From Malacoraja senta (taxonomy: Eukaryota): a stretch of 64,000 nucleotides of DNA. A program made the position numbers and the translations under genes. Where the stretch lies: positions 2,482,001-2,546,000 of the forward strand of contig CM075990.1 of the NCBI GenBank assembly GCA_038087875.1. Reading direction: 5' to 3'. Positions 2,608-48,825 of this stretch are shown here, piece by piece. Each line of letters begins with the position of its first letter. Positions within the stretch are counted from its first letter, which is position 1. The notes below the pieces were generated by a model. That model was not told the origin of the DNA and searched no databases. It saw only the letters and a program-made list of their open reading frames with translations.

Positions 2608-3218
2608 ACCCCCTGTCCCACATATGTGATTTTTTTCGGCGACTACAGGTGACTAGGCTGTCGCCACATGGTCGCGGGGTGACGCCTGTATGGTCGTGAG
2701 TAGTCTCCTCAAGTCGCCTAAAGAGTCGGAACGTTTTTCTGTTTGTCGCTGAATTTTGAAATGTTCAAAACATTTTGGCGACTGTGGGCTTGACGTAGCT
2801 TGTCTTCTCCTGACGTAGGTGCTGTCGTAGGTTGTCGCCAGGATGATGCAGGTTGTTGCCAGGTGACGTTGGTTGTCGCCGGGGCTGACTTCGGTGAATT
2901 CCATTGGCGACTACCTGCGTCAATCCATGTCAACCGGCGACAGGTACTGGCGACAGAATTGTCTTCAGTTGTTGCCTAAAGGGTCGTTGCTTGTCGTAGC
3001 TTGTCGCGGGTGGACGTAGGTTGACTTCGGTTGTCATACGTTGTCGCCTGTGTGGGTGAAGGTTGACGTCCTAATGGGTTGGCGGTTGTCGGTAGCTTGC
3101 TGTAGCTTAATATCGTCTAGGTGGTAGGTTGTAGGCTGTCGTAGCTTGTCGTAGACATTGTCATAGGGGGGGTCCAGTCGCCGCCTTTTTCCTAAATTGC
3201 CTAAGTGGGACTCTTTCC
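2608..3218. mobile_element. PIF/Harbinger-type MITE
   Basis: Left end ACCCCCTGTCCCAC, degenerate right end GTGGGAC; TTA at 2605-2607 and 3219-3221; empty site visible in the duplicate near 5074; many internal GTCG repeats. Confidence 0.8.
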
Positions 3219-4046: not shown

Positions 4047-4524
4047 TACGTGACTACTTTTGGTCACAGAGTCATGTTGTGTGGAAACAGGCCCTTGTGC
4101 CCAACTTGCAAATGCTTGTTCAGGAGTCAATAAAGCACAAGGATGGAGATATGTAGAACTTGGTGACCGTTAGGAGCAGTAATTTGGATGATTGTGGGTG
4201 TAAAGAGAGAGGATTGAGGGTGACACATCAGCTGCTGTTTAGAGACAAAAGTGTGTGTGACCTGCAATAGTGTAATGGAGTGGTCAGGAGCCTCGCTCTG
4301 TTATAATTGTTTCATGATTTCAAACTGTTATGATAATGGTTTAAGCAGGAACGAATTACATTATCACTGTATTTGTCGGTGTGACATTAACAATTTTGCA
4401 TTTCATATGGGTCAATTGAGGATATCCAAATATTATATTTGAAGAATGAAGGGCACGGGTTATGTGCTTACGAACGAGAATTTGGTGCATTTTTATATTG
4501 CTTTGTGTCTCCAGTCTAGTTGAG

Positions 4525-4821
4525 TTTCATTTAGAGATACAGTGCGGATACAGGCCCTTCGGCCCAACGAGGCAGCACCGACCAGCGATCTCAAACACTA
4601 ACACTATCCTACACAGGGACACTTTTACATTGATACCAAGCCAATTAACCAACAAACCTGTACGTCTTTGGAGTGTTGGAGGAAACCGAAGATCTCAGAG
4701 AAAATCCATGCGGTCACGGGGAGAACATACAAACTCCGTACAGACAGCATCCGTAGTCAGGATCGAACCCGGGTCTCTGGCGATGTTAGGCAGTAATACT
4801 GCTGCGTCACCGTGCTGCCCT
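4525..4821 (-). mobile_element. HE1-like V-SINE
   Basis: B-box reverse complement GGATCGAACC, V-domain, CR1-type tail. Confidence 0.85.
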
Positions 4822-5090
4822 TAGTTAAATCCTTGTGGTTTTTGGATAACTAGTGTGGCCAACAATATTGAGTGAAAGATAATTAAAACTCCTTCAGGAC
4901 AGTGAGGTTTCAGAATGACAAATGTTCCTTTACATGGCTCTAAGGAAGAGATAGATAATCATCTTAATATCTGAATCTCAGGAATCATTGCATGCTGCAT
5001 ATATTGACCCCTGATTAAAAGCTATTTCATTAGATGCCATCAGCGAAGCCAGGGTCTCCATTAGATATGCCATCTTACACAAGTAAACAC
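4797..5090 (+). repeat. Local direct duplication, copy B (lacks the MITE)
   Basis: Matches 2323-2607 and continues TTACACAAGTAAACAC, like the sequence after the MITE (TTACACATACAAACAC). Confidence 0.95.
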
Positions 5091-5092
5091 TT

Positions 5093-5273
5093 TACTACAA
5101 ACCTGTACGTCTTTGGAGTGTGGGAGGAAACTGAAGATCTCGGAGAAAACCCACGCGGTCACGGGGAGAACGTACAAACTCCGTACAGACAGCACCCGGA
5201 GTCAGGATCGAACCCAGGTCTCTGACGCTGAAAGCGTTGTAAGGCAGCAACTCTACCGCTGCGCCACCGTGCT
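5093..5273 (-). mobile_element. HE1-like V-SINE, 5' half
   Basis: CTCTACCGCTGCGCCACCGTG (A-box reverse complement) and GGATCGAACC (B-box reverse complement). Confidence 0.85.
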
Positions 5274-5284
5274 GCAAACGTCAT

Positions 5285-5755
5285 TGAATTACAGAGTCGT
5301 ATAGCATGGAAACAGGCTCTTCTGCCCAACTTGCCTGCACCGACCAACATGTCCCATCTACACTAGTCCCACCTGTCTGCATTTGGCCCATATCCCTCTA
5401 AACCTGTTTTATCCATGTACCTGTCTAAATGTTTCTTAAACGTTGCGATGGTCCCTGCCTCAACTACCACGTCCGGCAATTGTTCCAAACACCCACCACC
5501 ATTTGTGCAAAAAAACGTACCCCTCAGATCCCTATTAAATCTTTTCCCCTTCACCTCTAGTTCTCAATTCCCTGACTCTGGGCGAGAGACTCTGTGCATC
5601 TACCCAATCTATTCCTCTCATGATTTTGTACACCTCTATAAGATCACCCCTCATCCTCCTGCGCTCCAAAGAGTAGAGTCCCAGCCGACTCAACTACTCC
5701 CTGTAGCCCAGACCCTCTAGTCCTGTCAACATCCTCGTAAATCTTCCACGCATCC
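5285..5755 (-). mobile_element. CR1 3' fragment (older subfamily)
   Basis: ORF 5363..5554(-) VVEAGTIATFKKHLDRYM; RFTRMLTGLEGLGYRE. Confidence 0.8.
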
Positions 5756-5792
5756 TTCCCAACTCGACAACTTTACTTTGGAGATGCAGCGT

Positions 5793-5985
5793 GGGATGTA
5801 TTTGAGTGCACAGGGAGGGGTAGCACCTCTGGTGGGGGACATGTCGCGCTCCTTTGAGGGTAGTTCGTTCTTCTTTGGTCCCCACCTGGCAGCTGGCACT
5901 CACCTGTGGCTCCAACAAGCTGGTAGCCAGCGACAGTGGCCACATCCTGGAAAATCTCTTTGGCTGCCGGGCTAAACCACGTGAG
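5793..5985 (+). ncRNA. Candidate HDV-like ribozyme (degenerate, extended L3)
   Basis: P1 GGGATGT(5793-99)/ACATCCT(5942-48) then GG; P2 CTCACCTGT(5899-5907)/ACCACGTGAG(5976-85); P3 GGC/GCC; L3 starts TCC; J4/2 CTAA; P4 poorly paired. Confidence 0.45.
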
Positions 5986-6170
5986 GGGTAGCTGACGGGT
6001 CTCAGACCCTCGCTTGGTCGAGGGACTCGCTCAGCCCAGCATGCGGAGTCTGTTCTGGTGGACTGGGAGGAGGAACTCCACTGGAGGGTTCAAAGGTGAG
6101 GAGGACGGCTCAGCAGCGCACTGTGGACTGTTAAGGGCAGATCAAAGCACGAAAGAAGACATGTCCATCT
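5793..6170 (+). mobile_element. RTE-like retroelement 5' UTR fragment
   Basis: Structured GC-rich block with no ORF, resembling RTE 5' UTRs; starts with an HDV-like fold; family assignment by eye only. Confidence 0.45.
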
Positions 6171-6672
6171 TCTTTACTTCTCTACATCGGCGAGACCAAG
6201 CGCAGGCTCGGCGATCGTTTTGCTAAACACCTCTGCTCAGTCTGTCTTAACCTACCTGATCTCCTGGTGCCTCAGCACTTCAACTCCCCCTCCCATTCCC
6301 AATCTGACCTTTCTGTCCTGGGCCTCCTCCATTGTCAGAGTGAGGCCCGGCACAAATTGGAGGAACAGCACCTCATATTTCACTTGGGTAGTTTACACCC
6401 CAGCGGTATGAACATGGACTTCTCTAACTTCAGATAGCCCTTGCTTTCTCTCTCCATCCCCTCCCCTTCCCAGTTCACCCACCAGTCTTACTGTCTCTGA
6501 CTACATTCTATCTTTGTCCCGGCCCCTCCCCTGACATCAGTCTGAAGAAGGGTCTCGACCCGAAACGTCGCCCATTCCTTCCCTCCAGAGATGCTGCCTC
6601 ACCCACTGAGTCACTCCAGCATTTTATGTCTACCTTTGATTTAATCCAGCATCTGCAGTTCTTTCTTACATA
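6171..6672 (+). mobile_element. Penelope-like element 3' part (GIY-YIG C-terminus plus pLTR)
   Basis: CTCTACATCGGCGAGACCAAGCGC encodes LYIGETKR; homologous to 47690-48140; pLTR contains CTGAAGAAGGGTCTCGACCCGAAACG. Confidence 0.85.
6540..6572 (+). ncRNA. Minimal hammerhead-like motif in PLE pLTR (representative of more than 10 copies)
   Basis: CUGAAGA-A-GGGUCUCGACCC-GAAACGUC: catalytic core boxes, stem II and palindromic ACGU in place of stem III. Confidence 0.65.
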
Positions 6673-6844
6673 AGACCGTCCACTGCAGCCCAGGGAGTTT
6701 CCAGCCATAACGTCTAACCGTGCCACTGGAACCAGCCTCTGCGTCCGAGAGGGTTGTGTTACTCGTGAGCAACAGCCTCTCTCTTCCACTCAGTGCTTTA
6801 TGTACAACCATGCTATCGTGCTTTACGAAGGGCCACCACCATAC

Positions 6845-7122
6845 CACTGCGTGGAAACAGACCCCTCGGTCCACCGAGTCCTCTCCAACCAGCGAGCGCA
6901 CGTACACTAGTTCTATCCGAAACGCCCGGAGCAATTTGCAGAATCCAATTAACCTACAAACCCGCACGTCTTTGGGATGTGGGAGGAAACCAGGGCACCC
7001 GGAGAAAACCCACGCGGTCACAGGGAGAACATGCAAATGCTGTACAGGCAGCACCCGTAGTCAGGATCAAACCCAGGTCTCTGGAGCTGTAAGGCAGCAA
7101 CTCTACCGCTGCGCCACTGTGC
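6845..7122 (-). mobile_element. HE1-like V-SINE
   Basis: Full-length match to the other copies, reverse orientation. Confidence 0.85.
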
Positions 7123-7309
7123 CGACCAACATTTTTCAGGAAACCTGTTTAGTGTCCGGGTAGCATCTGACCTTTCACCTGTGGTTTTCTATGACGTCCT
7201 GCCTGCTAATGGTTAACACACACTAGCAGAATGGAGAACACGAGGCCAGTTACTCACTCCAGATCCCTTTATAATCCACACGCTCAGCGCCACATTTCAA
7301 CCAGTGACC

Positions 7310-7697
7310 CGCGATGGCTCAGTGGTGCAGCGGTAGAGTTGCTGCCTTACCGCGCCAGAGACCCGGTTCAATCCTGACCACGGTTGCCGTCTGTAAGTTG
7401 TAAAATTGTCCTTAGTGTGTAGTTCAAGTTCAAGACTCCCAGTTCAAGAAAGGTCACCAACCTCCTGACTACGGGTGCTCCCTGTGCGGAGTTCGCATGT
7501 TCTCCCTGCGGCCGCGTGGATTTTCTCCGGTTTCCTCCCACACTCCAAACACGTGCGGGTTTCCAGGTCAATTGGCTTCGGCAAATTAAAAATTGTCCCT
7601 TGTATGTAGGATGGTGCTAGTGTACGGGGTGATCGCTGGTCGGTGTGGACTCAGTGGGCTGAAGGGCCTGTTTCTGCACTGTATCTCTAAAGTCTAA
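7310..7697 (+). mobile_element. HE1-like V-SINE, internally rearranged
   Basis: A-box GGTGCAGCGG, GGTTCAATCC, repeated CCTGACT/CACGG segment, tail GGGCCTGTTTC..TGTATCTCTAAA. Confidence 0.75.
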
Positions 7698-8039
7698 AGA
7701 TGTTGAACTCTGTGCAGTAGCTGCAGGAAAACTCCCCCAACGTCTACTGTTGATGGCCAGGAGTACAGAAGCACTTTGCAATGATTTAAACTTCGAATCT
7801 CACTGTAATGGGTTATAAAAATTAGACCATAAAACCAGGCTACTGCTGGAAGCTACACACAGCTGCTCCAAAGGATTATGTGATGCGCATTTTGTGTCAC
7901 ATACTAAGTGTATGAAAATGGATTAGATTACAATCCAGAAAAAATTGTTGCATTTTTGCCACCTGATAACAAAATACTTATGGCTGAGAGAAACTGTTTG
8001 CCTTTTCTTCATTCATGCATCTAAAATGACCAACTTCCC

Positions 8040-9452: not shown

Positions 9453-9871
9453 CTAACAAATGTACTTACAGACAGTACCCGTAGTCAGGATGGGAGCTAG
9501 GTCTCTGGAGCTGTGAGGCAGCATCTCTACGCTGCGCCACCGTTCAACCCTACAATCCTACTCATTCCCATCTTATTCCCTCCCACAGCCCCAGCCAAGT
9601 TCTAACACTCACCCAAACACTCAAGGCGCAGAGGCCAAATAACATTTAATAGGAAGATTAAATGAGAACTTACCAGTTTGAAGTTTGATCTTTATTTTAT
9701 GAGGAGTTACGATGAGGGATTACGTGAAGAAGCCCACCAGCCCGCATGCGCGTCAACCTTCAAAACAGCGGTGTGAAATCACAGATAACAGTTGTTGAAC
9801 TGAATATAGCAAGATTCGAGAAATTAGAACTACCAGCTGACCTTTATGAGAAGAGGGTTGGGAGCGGACGG

Positions 9872-9983
9872 CACGTAATCCCTCATCGTAACTCCTCATA
9901 AAATAAAGATCAAACTTCAAACTGGTAAGTTCTCTTTAATCTTCCTATTTTACTTCGGAGTCACGTGAGTGACTTCGTGAAGA
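9872..9983 (-). repeat. Internal complementary region (ICR) of DIRS-A
   Basis: Reverse complement of the terminus at 9648-9725 joined to the reverse complement of the terminus at 14401-14437, through CTATTTTACTTC. Confidence 0.95.
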
Positions 9984-10134
9984 TTTCAAAGCTCTGTGAT
10001 TTTATGCCGTGAACACGAGTCCATGCAACACACTGCATCAGCTGACCAAAGATGAGTGAAAAAATAACAATGCATTCAGAGATGACATAGATTTAAAACA
10101 TGCTGATGCTAATAATAAGCAAATAATAAGCAAA

Positions 10135-11111
10135 TTATTGAATAGAACTTAAACTTGAGTTGGCAAACGAACCCGGCCTGGCAATCAGATTATTATAAAA
10201 GGTTTGGAAAGTCCGCTCATTTGACCATCCTACTATCGCTAGGGTGCGGTCCATCAGAACCTCCATGAACCTTGCTGCTGATGTTATCGCAGCCCTGGTG
10301 GAGTGAGATTTAAAAACATCAGTGTTCACTCCTGCACAAGCCAATACAAATCTCAACCATCTGGAGATGGTCTGCACTGAAACCCTCTTGTGTGTGTTTT
10401 TTGTGGCTAACGAACATTGCCAGCTCAGTGCCTCTAAGGTTCTTTGTAGCCTCAAAATGTTGATGAATATGTGTGACAACACACAATCTATGGTCCATAG
10501 GATATGCCAGAATTCCAGCTTTAGACCCAATGTCCCCGGTCTGCTTAGTTTAATAACTAATTTACATAGAACGTTATTTGTTGGTAGATATAACCATTCT
10601 GTTCAGCCGTAGCTTATGCAATGACTGGGCGCGTTGCGCCGAACCAGCGCCATGAGCATAACTACCTTATGAGAGCCCAGCCAAGGATAAGGATGTAGCT
10701 GGAGCCCACCGGCGAAGTAGTGCCAACACAATGTTAATATCGCATACTTCCGTGTACCTGGGCCTGGGAGAATTTGTGTTAAAGATATCCTTCATAAATC
10801 TGGATACCAGAGGGTGAGACCCGACAGAGTGGGTCCCGATCCCTGCAGCAAATATGATGAGAAGGCACGTTTGGCACAGTTAATGGCACTATAACTTAAT
10901 TTTTGTCAAAGACCCATTTGAAAATGAACTCCAACACGTCAGTTATCCGTGCCGTATTATATGTTATATTAGCATTTAAACTAAATACTTCCCAGCTGCT
11001 GATGAGGAAATGTATTGCTTTTTTGGTGCTATCCCTGCAAGCTGCAGTGAGCATGTCCATGGTTCGGTTTGACAACCCGAGCCCCAGGAACGATCTTCTC
11101 AGAGTCTGCAA
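10135..11111 (-). pseudogene. DIRS-A tyrosine recombinase (disrupted)
   Basis: ORFs 10896..11111 and 10135..10530: TISRWLRFVL..AGV.T..FKSHSTRAA...GWSNERTFQTFYN. Confidence 0.9.
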
Positions 11112-11119
11112 GTCAATAA

Positions 11120-13000
11120 ATTGATTCTATCATGCAGAGGATGGCTTCCCTAGTCATGGGATGAACCAGCAATTTTTGTGTTTAGAAATAACCACATAAG
11201 GTTCTATTATCATTCCCAACATCAACGGGAACCATGGCTGCATAGGCCAGTCATGCACTACGAAAATGCCTGAAGTGGAATCTTGCTGGATTTTTTGCAA
11301 GACCCGACTGATGAGGCAAAATGGAGGAAAGGCATAAAAGAACATTCCTCCCCAGTGTAGCAAGAATGCATCTATCGCCACTGCCCCTGGGTCTGGCTGC
11401 CATGCCACATATTTTTGCAACTGGTGATTGAGCCTAGATGCAAACAATTCGATATTCGGTGTTCCATATCGAGCCACAATGTCATTAAATAATTTGTGAT
11501 CCAACATCCATTCTGATTATCATTGATTTTACGTGATGATACACCAGCGCCAAATGAGGTTGGGTAAACTATCACAGGATACTGACGATTCCACCCATGT
11601 GATTAATATATGCCACCACCGTAGTGTATCAACTTGTAGTTGAGCATGCAGATTATGCATATTCGCACAATAAGCCTTTAACCCATAGAATGCCCCTAGT
11701 GTCTCTAGGTAGTTGATACCATATAACTGAAGAATTGGTAACTCATGCACATCCCATCCGCCTCCGTAACCAGAGATGGTATAGTAATTTTCCATCTTTG
11801 AGCACTAGCATCAGTTTGTAATATAACTGAAGGTTTACTGACAAAAAAGTTATTGGAGCAATGCTGAATACTGTTCGTCCACCATTGTGACTTTGATAGC
11901 TTCAGCTGGTAATAGCATAGGTCTGTTAACAATGACCTACATGATACTTGAGAGCTTGCTCCTTTGCACGTTGTAAGTTCTGATAATGCAAAGGCCCAAA
12001 TTGCGCAGCTGAAAAAACAGCCACTATATTGCCAATTACACTGGCTACTTGACGAATAGAAGGCTGCTTCATAACAACAAGGTTGTTACAGGCTTCTATT
12101 AATTCTAATATCCTGCCCCAGGGCGGAGTCACAGGCAAATTAATAGAGTTAAAGGTAAATCCCAATAATCAATAACTCTAGTTGGTATCAACTTAAATTT
12201 AACTGGATGGATGAGAAACCCCGATTTCTCAAATATTACTTTTGCGGCTGAAACAGCTAACTTAGCAAAATACAGCGTTTTAGAATATCATCCAGGTAGG
12301 CCATGACAATGTGTTTTTGAGCTCTGAGCAGCCCAAGCACCGGCTTTAGTAATTTGGTAAATAACCTGGGAGCTGAAGTTAGCCCATTTTGCAACGCTTT
12401 AAACTGCTATCGTTGCCCCATCCAGCTAAATTTCAAATATCTCCGGTGATCCCTGTGAATGGGAACTGAATAGTATGCATCTTTGAGATCAATGCATGCC
12501 ATAAAGCATCCTATGGAAATCAGTTGTTAGACAGTAACGAAGTTTTCCATTTTAAAATGTCTATACTGCACATGTGAGTTAAATCAAGGATGATCTGACA
12601 TCCTCCATCTTTCTTTTTTGGAGGCGCAGGGCGCCATCGCCGAAACGGTGAAGCTTTGCTTGTCGTGGGTGCTTTAATTAACCCGACAGCTTTTGCTTCC
12701 TCATCCAGATCTTTAATTGTTTGGATATCTGCTTGTATACCCAAACCTTTTTGTTTGGAATGAATAAATATCAAACTTGGTGTATATTGTATGGGTGGCA
12801 ATGAGTTAAAGGAAAATTCAATTTGGAACCCTTGTATACTGTGCAGTATAAACTGATCCGATGTTATCTTTTCAGTTTATAAACGGATCTGATGTTATCC
12901 GTCGTCATGCAAAAAACAAGTGTAATCTATTACCAACTTGTAACTGGTTCACACACCCCATGTTTCGGAAAGAACCAGACCCACCTACCGCCATGGTTAC
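11120..13000 (-). pseudogene. DIRS-A pol (RT, RNase H, Dam-like methyltransferase), disrupted
   Basis: Fragments homologous to DIRS-B pol: VGGSG, KKDGG, GPLHYQNLQ, LQTDAS, INYLE, LFASRLN, YAFPPF, DWP.QPWFP. Confidence 0.9.
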
Positions 13001-13212
13001 TGGTGGTCTTATGGTAAGCCCAAAGGCCCCTGATGCGGGTTCTATTTCCGTCCTCGAGATTTGGAGGGTAGGACTGCTGGGGTGCGTGGATTGCACATTT
13101 TCCCTGAGGGCCGGCTTGGGCCTTAGCCTAAAAGACCACTGCCCAGAGAATCAGCTTTCGAGCTGCCACCAGCTTCAGTGAACCGCTTACTGCCGATGGA
13201 GGCGTCGGGGTG

Positions 13213-13734
13213 TTATCGCCGAAACGGTGAAGCTTTGCTCGTCGTTGGTAGCTTGATTAGTCCGACAGCTTTTGCTTCCTCATCCAGGTCTTTTACCTGT
13301 TTGGATAGGTCTTCCCCGAAGAGAAGATTCGGCGGCTGGACATTGCTGGCCTTACATAAGCCTGCAAATTTGGGATTTAAGGCAGGTCTGATGGCATTCT
13401 TCTGAAAGCAGTTCATTTCGAAGTGTGCATTGCACATCAACGCAAGGGCATCCTGCCGATAAGGGCCCGCCATCCACAGATCTGGCAAATGCCGTGATGC
13501 CTGAGGCCAGTAATTTTGAACATTTTTTTTAGATTTGTTTCCTGGGTTTTTGACGCCCCTTCCAATGTCTCCCCAGATAGCGCTGTTCACTGCCGGCACT
13601 TTCAGGATTGCACATTTACAGGCGTATGGTATTTTACAGCCGTCACCTGTTCTTGTAATGATGTGACTTGAGGAAGTTGATGCTGGGAGGCAACTTTTCT
13701 TGCAGTGGCTCCTTAGTTTGCGAGGGTATCGCAA
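13213..13734 (-). pseudogene. DIRS-A gag C-terminal part (disrupted)
   Basis: QDALALMCN..FE.N...IRPALNPKFAGLC...LLFGEDL aligns with DIRS-B gag. Confidence 0.85.
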
Positions 13735-14529
13735 GCCTTTGATGCCATGGCAGACAATTCTTGAACCTCACGCATGTATTCCAATATGTTCCACGGACAT
13801 ACTTCCGAGTTCGGAGTCAGTCATACACTGACCCCGGCACTCCCCTCCACAGAGAGGGAGATTTGTAAGCAGCCCTGAAACAGGCGCTGCCACAGGCCCC
13901 CAAGGAGACCTGTGCTGATATGGCACCGTTTTACGGAGCATATCATGATGGAGCATCCTCTGTGGGATGAACGCCCGAGGACGCTATCCATGCTCTATCT
14001 GGGATAAACGCCCGAGGACGTACCCATGTTTGTCGGAGGGGAACCCTCCTGGCCTGACTTGTCCAAGTCCAAGCCTCTCAGACTCCGTTTGGCTGTACAC
14101 CCTTTCGGGTTGCCGAAGTCTGAAGTCGCTGACCGCATTGTCAGCGACTCGTGTAGTGAACCTGACGACCGCCGGCTAACCGCACTCCCGCGGTCCTCTG
14201 TAGCCAGTTTCCCCGCGGCTCGTCTGGATTTCGCCCCGGATTTCCATATCCAGCAGGAAACTCTGTAAAAATATAACCTGAAAATACGTTCAAAAACCTC
14301 CCTGCAGGGTTTGAAACTTACCGCTGGAGGAGCGACGCGCCTCCCAGCCAGTCGTGCGCAATGCGTTAGACGTATTGACGCGCATGCGGGCTGGCGGGCT
14401 TCTTCACGAAGTCACTCACGTGACTCCTGAGTAAAATTGCCTAACTGCACGTGTTTGGGATGTGGGAGGAATCAAATGAAATCGGGGAAGCTCAGGTTGT
14501 CACAGAAAAAATGTGTACACTCCACACAC

Positions 14530-15060
14530 CAGAGTCATAGAGTCATAGAATCGCACAGCATGGAAACAGGCCCTTTGGCCCAACTTGGCCATTCAAGCCC
14601 ACATATCCTATCTACACTAGTGCCACCTGCCTGCGTTTGGCCCATATCCTTCTCAACCTATCCTGCCCATGTACTTTGTCTAAATATATCTTGAACATTG
14701 TGATAGTCCCAGCCTCAACCACATCCTCTGGCAGCTTGTTCCATACACTCACCACCCTTTGTGTAAAAAAGTTATCCTCAGATTCCTTTTCCCCTTCGCC
14801 TTAAACCTATGTCCTCTGCTCCTCAGTTCCACGACCCTGGGCAAGACTCTGTGCGTTTACCCGATCTATTCCTCTCATGATTTTGCACGCATCCTCCTGC
14901 GCTCCAAGGAATAGAATCCCAGCCTGCTCAACCTCTCCCACAGATGTTGCTCAGGCCCACAAGTCATGGCAACATCCTGGTAAATCTCTGCACCCTTTGC
15001 GGCTTAACAACCTCTTTCCTCTAACATGGTGCCCAGAACTGAACGCAATACTCTACAAGT
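14530..15060 (-). mobile_element. CR1 3' fragment
   Basis: Same subfamily as 5285-5755; AGAGTCATAGAGTCATAG tail on plus strand. Confidence 0.75.
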
Positions 15061-35103: not shown

Positions 35104-36099
35104 TTAAGTTTATTGGCCAAGTATGTACACATACAAGGAAATTTGCCTTGGTGCTCCGCTCGCAAGTAACAACATGACATACAGTGACAATTAAGAATGA
35201 CGCATAATACATTACACATTAATAATAAAACATTATCGTTTAAACATGCGAATGAAATAAAATACCAGAGCAAAAGGAGGCTACAGATTTTTGGTTATAG
35301 TATTGAGTATTTGGTTAATGGTTATTGAAGTTCCACACTGCCTTGCTGGGATTTAACCATTTGGCATTCGATTCATATAGTCACAGAGTGATGTAGTCAT
35401 ACAGCACAAAAACAGGCCCTTCAGCCCAACTTGCCCATACAACCCATTTACACTAGTCCCACCTGTCCACGTTTGGCACATACACCTCTAAACCTTTTCT
35501 ATACATGTACCTGTCCAAATGCCTTTTAAATGTTGTTACTGTACGCTCCTCAAGTCTTTAAAGCTACATCAGCTTAAAGTGACCAGGTTTGTATACAATA
35601 GACAATAGACAATAGGTGCAGGAGTAGGCCATTTGGCCCTTCGAGCCAGCACCGCCATTCAATGTGATCATCCCCAATCAGTACCCCGTTCCTGCCTTCT
35701 CCCCATATCCCTTGACTCCGCTATCTTTAAGAGCTCTATCTAACTCCCTATAGCTCAGGCCCTCAAGTCCTGGCAACATCTCGTCAATCTTCTCGCCATT
35801 CATTCCATCTGAACAATATCCTTCCTATACCAGGATGATCGAAACTGGATGCAATACTCCAATTTGATCTCGCCAATGTCTTGCACGACTGTAACATAAC
35901 ATCCCAACTTCTATATTCAATATGAGTAGGAAGAATCTGCAGATGCTGGTTTAAACTGAAGATAGACACAAAAAGCTGAAATAACTCAGCGGGCCAGTCA
36001 GCATCTTTGGAGAAAAGGAATAGGTGATGTTTTGGGTCTAGACTCTTCTTCGGACTGAGAGTAGGAACTGAGATGCTGGTTCAAACCAAAGATAGACCG

Positions 36100-39945: not shown

Positions 39946-40911
39946 GTTTGCGTGTATGTGTCTGTGTGTGTGTGCTTGCGTGTGCGTGGGTATGTGTGTG
40001 TGTGCGGGTGTGCGCAAGTGCATGTGTGTTTGTATGTGTGTGTGTGTGTGTGTGCATTTATGTGCCTGCATGTGCTTGCAAATGTGTGTGTGTGCGTATG
40101 TGTGTGTATGTGTGAGTGTGTGTGTGAGTGTGTGCGTGTGCATGCATGTGTGTGTGTGCATGCCTGTGCATGTGATTTGTGTGAGTGTGTGTGTGCATGT
40201 GTGAGTGTGTATGTGCATGTGTGCATGTGTGTGCGCGTGTTTGTGCATGAGTGTATGTGCGTGGTTGTGTGCGCGCGCATGTGTGTGTGTGTGTGTGAGT
40301 GTGAGTGTGTATGTGTGTGTGCATGAGTGTATGTGTGCGTGCGTGTGTGCGTATGTGTGAGAGTGTATGTGCATGTGTGCATGTGAGTGTGTGTGTATGT
40401 GCGTGTGTGTGTATGTGTGTGTGCATGTGTGTGCGTGCATGTGTGTGTGTGTGCGCACACATGAGTGTGTGTATGTGTGTGTATGCGCGTGTGTGCATGT
40501 ATGAGTGTGTATGCGTGTGTGATCATATGTGTGTGTGTGGCGCATGTGTGCATATGTGTGTGTGCTTATGCACGCGCATGTGTGCATGCGTGTGTGTGCG
40601 CGTGTGTGTGAGTGTGTGTGTGTGTGAGGATGGGTGTGTGTGTGTGTATATGTGCGTGTGTGCATGTGTGTGCATGTGTGTGCATGCATGTGTGTGTGTG
40701 TATGGGCACACATGAGTGTGTGTGTATATGTGTGTGTATGCACGTGTGTGCATGTATGAGTGTGTATGCGCATGTGATCATATGTGTGTGTGGCTCGTGT
40801 GTGCATGTATGTGTGTGTATGCGCGCGCATGTGTGCATGCGTGTGTGAGTGTGTGTGTGTGTGTGTGTGAGTGTGTGTGTGTGTGTGTGAGTGTGTGTGT
40901 GGGTGAGATTG

Positions 40912-40944
<33 letters not shown>

Positions 40945-41080
40945 ATGTGTGTGTATGTGTGTGTGTATGTGTGTGTATGTGTGTATGTGTGTGTATGTGT
41001 GTGTGTGAGTGTGAGTGTGAGTGTGTGTATGTGTATGAGTGTGTGTGTATGTGCATGTGTGTGTGTGTGTGTATATATGT
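39946..41080. repeat. Compound (GT)n/(GCAT) alternating purine-pyrimidine simple repeat, about 1.1 kb
   Basis: Directly visible; source of the spurious C/V- and H/T-rich ORFs. Confidence 0.98.
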
Positions 41081-47689: not shown

Positions 47690-48825
47690 GAAGGTAGACA
47701 AAAAATGCTGGAGAAACTCAGTGGGTGAGGCAGCATTTATGGAGAGAAGGAATAGGCGACGTTTCGGGTCGAGACCCTTCTTCAGACTGATGTCGGTGGG
47801 GGGGGGGGCAGGAAAGAGAAAGGAAGTAGGCAGAGACAATAGGACTTGTGGGAGAACTGGGAAGGAGGAGGGGAAGGAGGGATAAAGCAAGGGCTATCTG
47901 AAATTAGAGGTCAATGTTCATACCGCTGGGGTGTAAACTACCCAAGTGAAATAGGTGCCATTCCTCCAATTTGCGCTGGGCCTCACTCTGCCAATGGAGA
48001 GGGCCCAGGAGAGAAAGGTCAGATTGGGAATGGGAGGGGGAGTTGAAGTGCTGAGCAACCAGGAGATCAGGTAGGTTAAAACGGACTGAGCGAAGGTGTT
48101 CAACAAAGGGATTGCCGATCCTGCGCTTGGTCTCGCCGATATAGAGAAGTTTACACCTAGAACAGAGGATGCAGTAGATGAGGTTGGAGGAGGTGCAGGT
48201 GAACCTCTGCCTCACCTGGAAAGACTGTTTGGGTCCTTGGATGGAGTCGAGGGGGGAGATATATGGACAAGTGTAGCATTTCCTGCGGTTGCAGGGGAAA
48301 GTACCCGGGGCGGGGGTGGTTTGGGTGGGAATGGACGAATTGACAAGGGAGTTATGGAGAGAACGGTCTCTGCGGAAAGCAGAAAGTGGAGGAGATTGGA
48401 AGATGTGGCCAGTGGTGGGATCCCATTGGAGGTGGCGAAAATGTCGGAGGATTATGTGCTGTATGCGACGGCTGATGGGGTGGAAGGTGAGGACAAGGTG
48501 GACTCTGTCCTTATTATGAATAGGGGGAGGGGGAGTAAGATCGGAGCTGCGGGATATAGAGGAGACCCTGGTGAGGGCCTCATCTATAATGGAAGAGGGG
48601 AACCCCCGTTCCCTAAAGAATGAGGACATCTCCAATGCCCTGGTATGGAACACCTCATCCTGGGCGCAGATGCGGCGCTGAGGGAGGAATTGGGAGTAGG
48701 GATAGAGTCTTTACAGGAAGCAGGGTGGGAAGAAGTGTAGTCCAGATAGCTATGGGAGTCAGTAGGTTTGTAGTACATGTCGGTCAGTAGTCTGTTACCT
48801 GCGATGGAGATGGTGAGGTGGTAAG
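47690..48825 (-). mobile_element. Penelope-like element, 5'-truncated (RT C-terminus, GIY-YIG endonuclease, pLTR)
   Basis: ORF 47904..48653(-) CNRRKCYTC...SNLIYCILCSRCKLLYIGETKRR; YYKPTDSHSYLDYTSSHP; flanking AAGCTTTTCACT at 47678-89 and 48826-37. Confidence 0.93.

Follow-up and report, generated by a model that had tools for sequence, protein, structure and literature searches.

The stretch of DNA analyzed here (the window, 64,000 nucleotides of Malacoraja senta contig CM075990.1) raises the question of whether a self-cleaving ribozyme of the HDV-like kind can carry an additional hairpin in its L3 loop. L3 is under the tightest constraint of all loops in HDV-like ribozymes, and the descriptors used in searches as a rule keep it short. 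A preliminary description had placed such a fold, with a 28-nt L3, at 5793–5985, at what was read as the 5′ end of an RTE-like element. The features of the site in this copy, hereafter the window copy, are as follows.

5793–5799, + strand: P1 5′ strand; G5793 is G1, the predicted cleavage site and the element's 5′ end
5800–5898, + strand: J1/2, 99 nt (100 nt in the distant homologue L127), a predicted long P1.2 hairpin domain
5899–5907, + strand: P2 5′ strand
5908–5910, + strand: P3 5′ strand
5911–5918, + strand: canonical part of L3, with U20, C21–C22 (P1.1) and position 25 (5916)
5919–5937, + strand: inserted L3 hairpin in the family register, a 6-bp stem (5919–5924/5932–5937) with a 7-nt loop; five of six pairs in the window copy
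5939–5950, + strand: P3 3′ strand (5939–5941), P1 3′ strand (5942–5948) and the GG of P1.1 (5949–5950)
5955–5970, + strand: P4 (5955–5959/5966–5970), with three of five pairs remaining in the window copy
5971–5975, + strand: G74 and J4/2 (CTAA, 5972–5975), with the putative catalytic C5972, a role assigned by analogy to HDV
5976–5985, + strand: P2 3′ strand, with one bulged C

P1, the GG that follows it, P2, P3, the 28-nt L3 (5911–5938), CTAA and the 99-nt J1/2 all lie where the preliminary description had put them, and P1, P2, P3, P1.1 and P4 give the topology of a nested double pseudoknot, with 28 of 32 HDV-like pairs formed. Two of the four broken pairs are in P4, one is in P2 and one in the L3 hairpin. 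The poor pairing of P4 in this copy had been noted beforehand, as had the P2 mismatch and bulge; the mismatch (5904/5980) and the P4 changes proved to be mutations private to the window copy, and position 25, a G in the family, is here C5916. Because G25 is replaced by C and pairs of P4, P2 and the hairpin are broken, the window copy is probably, judged from its sequence, a relic with an inactive ribozyme.

A descriptor loosened at G25 and P4 and allowing an L3 of up to 35 nt gave a single match on both strands of the 64-kb window (5793/5911/5972) and matched 2 of 3000 dinucleotide shuffles of 5793–6092; it was written after the sequence had been seen, and the shuffle figures are to be taken as indicative. 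When L3 was held at 6–9 nt no match was obtained. At E≤10, Rfam returned no ribozyme family, and no drz-agam match, in window 4500–8000 or in positions 1450–2100 of L002, another copy of the element. The expectation that descriptors with a fixed L3 would miss this structure was thus borne out.

The nature of the element was examined by searching the genome (1.94 Gb) with 5780–6180, which returned at least 41 matches (40 of 48 candidates were scored). Aligned family copies have approximately 560 nt in common and end in a (CCA)n tail, and the window copy consists of 5793–6169 and 6679–6846, arranged with its flanks as follows.

5787–5794, + strand: probable left target-site duplication, overlapping G1–G2 by microhomology (by eye)
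5986–6169, + strand: continuation of the 5′ UTR, RTE-type
6170–6678, + strand: later insertion that interrupts the retroposon, from the 3′ part of a GIY-YIG element (gap in the match)
6679–6846, + strand: remaining 5′ UTR joined to an RTE 3′ end and the (CCA)n tail
6847–6854, + strand: probable right target-site duplication (by eye)

In the long copies L091 and L092 the shared sequence is followed by broken, degenerate APE+RT frames; along as much as 2.3 kb these copies are 69–72% identical to L093, which carries RVT_1 and whose 3′ end is nearly the same 45 nt as that of the short copies. The shared 5′ UTR and the L093-type end of about 45 nt indicate that a LINE 3′ end has been joined to a 5′ UTR to make the short form. 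This form has the tail and target-site duplications and lacks an ORF, as expected of a bipartite non-autonomous LINE, and its autonomous partner has one ORF holding both APE and RT, as expected for an RTE derivative. The assignment to the RTE type draws on this architecture, on one match named 'craniofacial development protein 2-like' and on sequence motifs. An RTE-like 5′ end, as first proposed, therefore describes this element well: a 5′ UTR followed by the last ~45 nt of an APE+RT LINE, a tail and target-site duplications.

The end of the 5′ UTR and the 3′ end are complementary, and the junction of the short form lies inside the resulting helix (L002, L012, L088); in the window copy this helix forms only in part, and of 9 copies 4 cleared our script's filter. 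In L093 the same two strands, 3.4 kb apart, can pair at −17.6 kcal/mol. At 3138–3644 of L092, this long copy switches within RT to the 3′ end of another LINE. As for the insertion at 6170–6678, which we take to be Penelope-like, its frame is 79% identical to one with a sub-threshold GIY-YIG match; other pieces of the GIY-YIG repeat, at 14945–14989, 35747–35792 and 48076–48150, match the query flanks. Elsewhere in the window, the minus strand of 9660–13770 holds broken frames (recombinase, RT/RNase H, gag-like) that resemble a DIRS-type element, with an inverted repeat near 9660–9950, and 40001–41000 shows extreme strand skew (GC +0.66, AT −0.57) and is probably a simple repeat.

If the fold cleaved before G1, the element should begin there. 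Seventeen of 37 loci reach majority position 5 or less, and among these full copies the frequency of the commonest base is 0.29–0.47 at −15 to −1, 0.59 at G1 and 0.76–1.0 at positions 2–20. Homology stops at G1/G2, and no copy shares sequence upstream of G1. The boundary thus lies within 1 nt of the predicted cleavage site, in agreement with the coincidence first noted in the window copy. That copies start exactly at G1 was upheld in part: G1 itself is present in 10 of the 17, and at least five start at G2 with a flanking A, which suggests that the first base is often lost. In L016, L017 and L025 the target-site duplications stop at −1, in L002 and L009 they extend over the first Gs, and L005 and L012 are 5′-truncated at +10 and +13. 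For the window copy, a scripted search found no target-site duplication; by eye, 5787–5794 and 6847–6854 match at 7 of 8 positions. At the 5′ junction of L020, a short tandem duplication of the first bases offers two possible P1 5′ strands.

In the majority sequence of 26 aligned copies (family A), 32 of 32 HDV-like pairs can be formed and L3 measures 28 nt, so the topology claimed from the window copy is fully realized there. Both this majority and L127 match a strict descriptor, which matched none of 3000 shuffles of either, and the majority fits it only with L3 set at 28. The L3 sequence reads U20, C21, C22, two free bases, G25, two A, the 6-bp hairpin and one G. Position 25 is G in 23 of the 24 copies that cover it, the sole exception being the window copy, and U20 and G25, the partners of the trans wobble, are both present in the family and in L127. 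The putative catalytic C, which opens J4/2 ahead of N-A-A, is kept in 20 of 22 family copies covering the position and is C689 in L127. In the 7-bp P1, G1 faces U in the window copy and the family and C in L127. With 28 nt in the window copy and family and 29 nt in L127, L3 departs from the 7–8 nt of HDV and CPEB3, and we therefore file the structure as a variant and not as a member of a described family. The presence of an extra hairpin in L3, as originally reported, was confirmed, but its reported register (GCTGG-TAG-CCAGC) occurs in 1 of 26 aligned copies, the window copy, where the 5-bp stem can form at −6.9 kcal/mol; we rejected it as a family feature and regard it as a by-product of this copy's decay.

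Family A copies diverge by 7–22% from the majority, and non-CpG decay in the core, J1/2 and downstream sequence amounts to 8.7, 9.9 and 8.8%, with no signal of selection within the family. Decay that is equal across regions is neutral and uninformative on selection. For the same reason a double change from G-C to A-U in P1 of the window copy was not counted as covariation, since this copy is decaying neutrally and departs from the majority at 36 positions, of which the double change makes up 2. In J1/2, the long hairpin is significant in L127 (z −2.9) and not in the window copy (z +1.0) or L004 (z −0.1). The linker before P2 (window 5888–5898; L127 601–613) is conserved in both lineages and mutated in the window copy. 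The 6-nt P4 loop (window 5960–5965; L127 677–682) is identical in the family majority and L127 despite changes in the stem; contigs from four further sequencing runs (X3–X6) differ in this loop at one base.

L127 itself came from a pattern scan of metagenome contigs that returned two matches, L127 and L128, which are one locus in two assemblies; the sequencing runs that hold it are labelled annelid metagenome, and no RNA run was among those listed. Loose pattern scans gave 1 match in genome contigs, 4 in viral contigs and 10 in the window's genome, 7 of the latter being family A; L129–L134, L139 and L142 were discarded as chance pattern matches that lack the helices. L127 has P1 at 507–513/659–665, and all 32 pairs form in the same helix order, the L3 hairpin included. 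An open APE (endonuclease) frame lies 3′ of the fold, and relatives of this ORF are mostly APE+RT proteins of 900–1040 amino acids; none was found in viral contigs. The frame and its relatives show 22–32% protein identity to L093 in long matches and 23–44% to short pieces of L091 and L092. Compared with the family majority, the L127 core is 81% identical, and J1/2 and the next 100 nt are 51% identical.

Nine substitutions between L127 and the family fall in six pairs. All six stay paired, three of them through double changes (in P2, the L3 hairpin and P4), and P2 has gained one pair by insertion on both strands. When nine substitutions were placed at random, all pairs were kept in 23–155 of 400,000 trials; this null drew on the 48 paired positions that the search pattern had left free, and so excluded what the pattern had fixed in L127, namely P3, P1.1, two pairs of the hairpin and two bases of P1. 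Contigs of runs X3 and X4 carry a third variant of the closing pair of the L3 hairpin (C-G) and a shorter loop, that of X6 has a different loop, and the five outer hairpin pairs are unchanged across X3, X4 and X6. In one X5 contig (depth 5.8) a P4 pair is broken. The X3–X6 contigs fall short of the L127 P1 5′ strand and therefore do not fix the 5′ boundary of this lineage at 507. In an alignment of 13 family copies and L127 (A3), 88% of cells are paired, and the covariation score was reached by 1 of 500 shuffles, a score inflated by the relatedness of the copies. Since selection leaves no signal within the family, the compensatory changes in the helices, which the preliminary description had asked for and which are present, come from one outside locus and a few contigs of four runs. 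Taken together, these alignments show, at the level of sequence, that all helices including the L3 hairpin have been kept by compensatory changes in a distant lineage. Two 1-kb contigs (X3, X4), aligned to L127 594–639, agree with it as far as the point where the L3 hairpin begins, then part from it and match again 98 nt further on; they perhaps represent a family whose L3 insert is different or longer.

A closer relative behaves differently. Family B (27 distinct copies among 30 loci; at least 40 matches among 88 candidates, 90–97% identical to the query), which includes L093, is a sister of family A with about 70% identity at the DNA level, and its copies start within a few bases of the place that matches the family A P2 3′ strand. 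A search model (R2) had no match in the 9 family B loci given to it, whereas of 7 sources that were A-type or L127 it matched 6, missing L080, and Rfam (E≤10) reported no ribozyme at the family B locus L098. A relaxed HDV descriptor matched 1 of 27 copies of family B, but as it matched no more than 3 of 26 decayed copies of family A, it is a weak control. Family B (L097–L126 and L093) is younger, occurs in short and long forms and has a sharp 5′ boundary; the initial 60 nt are predicted to form a three-way junction that has no match in Rfam, and a twister or hammerhead reading of its 5′ hairpins was dropped after inspection by eye. The fold is thus common to distant lineages and missing in a close one, a pattern that fits both descent with loss in family B and exchange of a 5′ module, between which two lineages cannot decide.

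We consider it quite probable, on the comparative and modeling evidence above, that the locus is the decayed 5′ end of a non-autonomous RTE element whose family folds as an HDV-like ribozyme with a hairpin in L3 and likely excised itself before G1. Such a ribozyme would free the element from read-through transcripts of the host by cleaving immediately 5′ of G1. U20, C21–C22 and G25 would stay at their HDV positions with the hairpin 3′ of them, and because the hairpin follows all catalytic L3 bases, the core is presumed normal; the added helix would face outward from the active site, stacked on P3. C75 would catalyze cleavage and leave a 5′-OH RNA capped by the folded ribozyme, a structured J1/2 would speed folding as in drz-Agam-2-1, and rival pairings (an extended P3, or the linker with the P1 5′ strand) could slow cleavage. 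The window copy would by now be dead. A bolder proposal, that these are active members of an HDV-like subclass with a grafted L3 helix, concealed from searches with a fixed L3 and able to move as a 5′ module from one RTE lineage to another that is deeply divergent from it, is suggested by a core 81% identical across 22–32% protein identity and by a 70%-identical sister family that has dropped the module; we hold it to be tentative and rather doubtful.

A genuine fold that its L3 hairpin has made slow to cleave or unable to do so, and that acts as a cap shielding the 5′ end, as a site where a protein binds or in translation, with an internal promoter setting the 5′ end, would be consistent with family B, which spread with a sharp 5′ end and no such fold, and with the absence of G1 from 7 of 17 full copies. 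L3 is moreover part of the active site (PMC4908430), and the fold alone aids R2 template stability (PMC11331408). Against an L3 of 7–8 nt in HDV and CPEB3, a loop of 28 nt might not be tolerated. Such a cap does not readily explain why the catalytic C, G74, U20, G25, P1.1 and a purine-started 7-bp P1 are kept in both lineages, nor a boundary at most 1 nt from G1, and we judge it unlikely. Still less probable is a switchable ribozyme, in which the linker would pair with the P1 5′ strand co-transcriptionally until the core is made or an RTE protein binds. This alternative pairing of 6–7 bp is possible in both lineages, is about as strong as P1 itself in the family (−11.3 versus −10.8 kcal/mol) and belongs to the minimum-energy fold in L127; a rival minimum-energy pairing extends P3 by taking bases from P1 and P2. 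However, the energy models used omit pseudoknots, such misfolds are common in HDV ribozymes, and a switch would be compatible with self-excision and not exclusive of it. Chance resemblance in a G+C-rich UTR with no ribozyme ancestry, for which the post hoc descriptor, the lack of an Rfam match and the lack of selection among copies might speak, is scarcely credible given 0 of 3000 shuffles, the compensatory changes and conserved spacing in L127 and the coincidence with the element 5′ end.

If true, a self-excising 5′ end with a conserved natural L3 helix would establish a third insertion site in these ribozymes besides J1/2 and P4, would mean that ribozyme-headed RTE elements are under-counted and would be of use to engineers of ribozymes. 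Since one genome holds both family A, which has the fold, and family B, which lacks it, the two form a natural pair for studying the role of the ribozyme in RTE elements. The 5′ UTR of the element seems to resemble that of RTE-1-type elements in marsupials and afrotherians, in which case this variant would be present there too. Self-cleavage at RTE-1 5′ ends would bear on RNA-templated gene insertion in practice, where RTE-1 UTRs are already used (PMC13708176, available sections).

HDV-like ribozymes are already known at the 5′ ends of RTE, R2, R4, Ingi/L1Tc and LOA elements (Ruminski 2011, via PMC5786205 and PMC6765202); in this class a J4/2 cytosine cleaves 5′ of G1 and releases the retroelement RNA from co-transcripts (PMC6765202, PMC3774820), and the ribozyme fold protects the RNA 5′ end (PMC11331408). 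Family A and L127 share with them the position at the first base, the topology, the catalytic C and the likely role in release from co-transcripts, and differ in the 28–29-nt L3 with its conserved 6-bp hairpin. No L3 hairpin in an HDV-like ribozyme was found in the literature searched, a scope without Ruminski 2011, Webb 2009 and Webb and Luptak 2011, nor in the available text of PMC10879173, PMC4035085 and PMC13708176; the variant may already figure in the illustrations or supplements of the Ruminski and Webb papers. Genomic HDV and CPEB3 (bioRxiv 10.1101/2022.09.22.508989) have in common with our structure the G1-U wobble, a 3-bp P3, U20/G25, two P1.1 G-C pairs and a 3–4-nt J1.1/4, whereas their L3 is 7–8 nt and their J1/2 short. 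The ribozyme drz-Agam-2-1, in which a structured J1/2 raises the rate, shares the large structured J1/2 (P1.2) and a long P2 (9–10 bp here), but no L3 insertion is described in the part available (PMC4908430), and our family gave no Rfam drz-agam match. In plant RTE LINEs (bioRxiv 10.1101/2022.11.04.512097), close families have different 5′ ends, as families A and B do; in the plant elements a promoter is seen in the part that is exchanged, which in ours is a predicted ribozyme fold. Finally, Bov-A, RTESINE1/2, WALLSI3, MAR4_MD and RTE-N2_Lch (PMC5786205), likened to our element by description, show the same fusion of a 5′ UTR to an extreme 3′ end, and like it these bipartite RTE elements have no ORF and end in a microsatellite tail.
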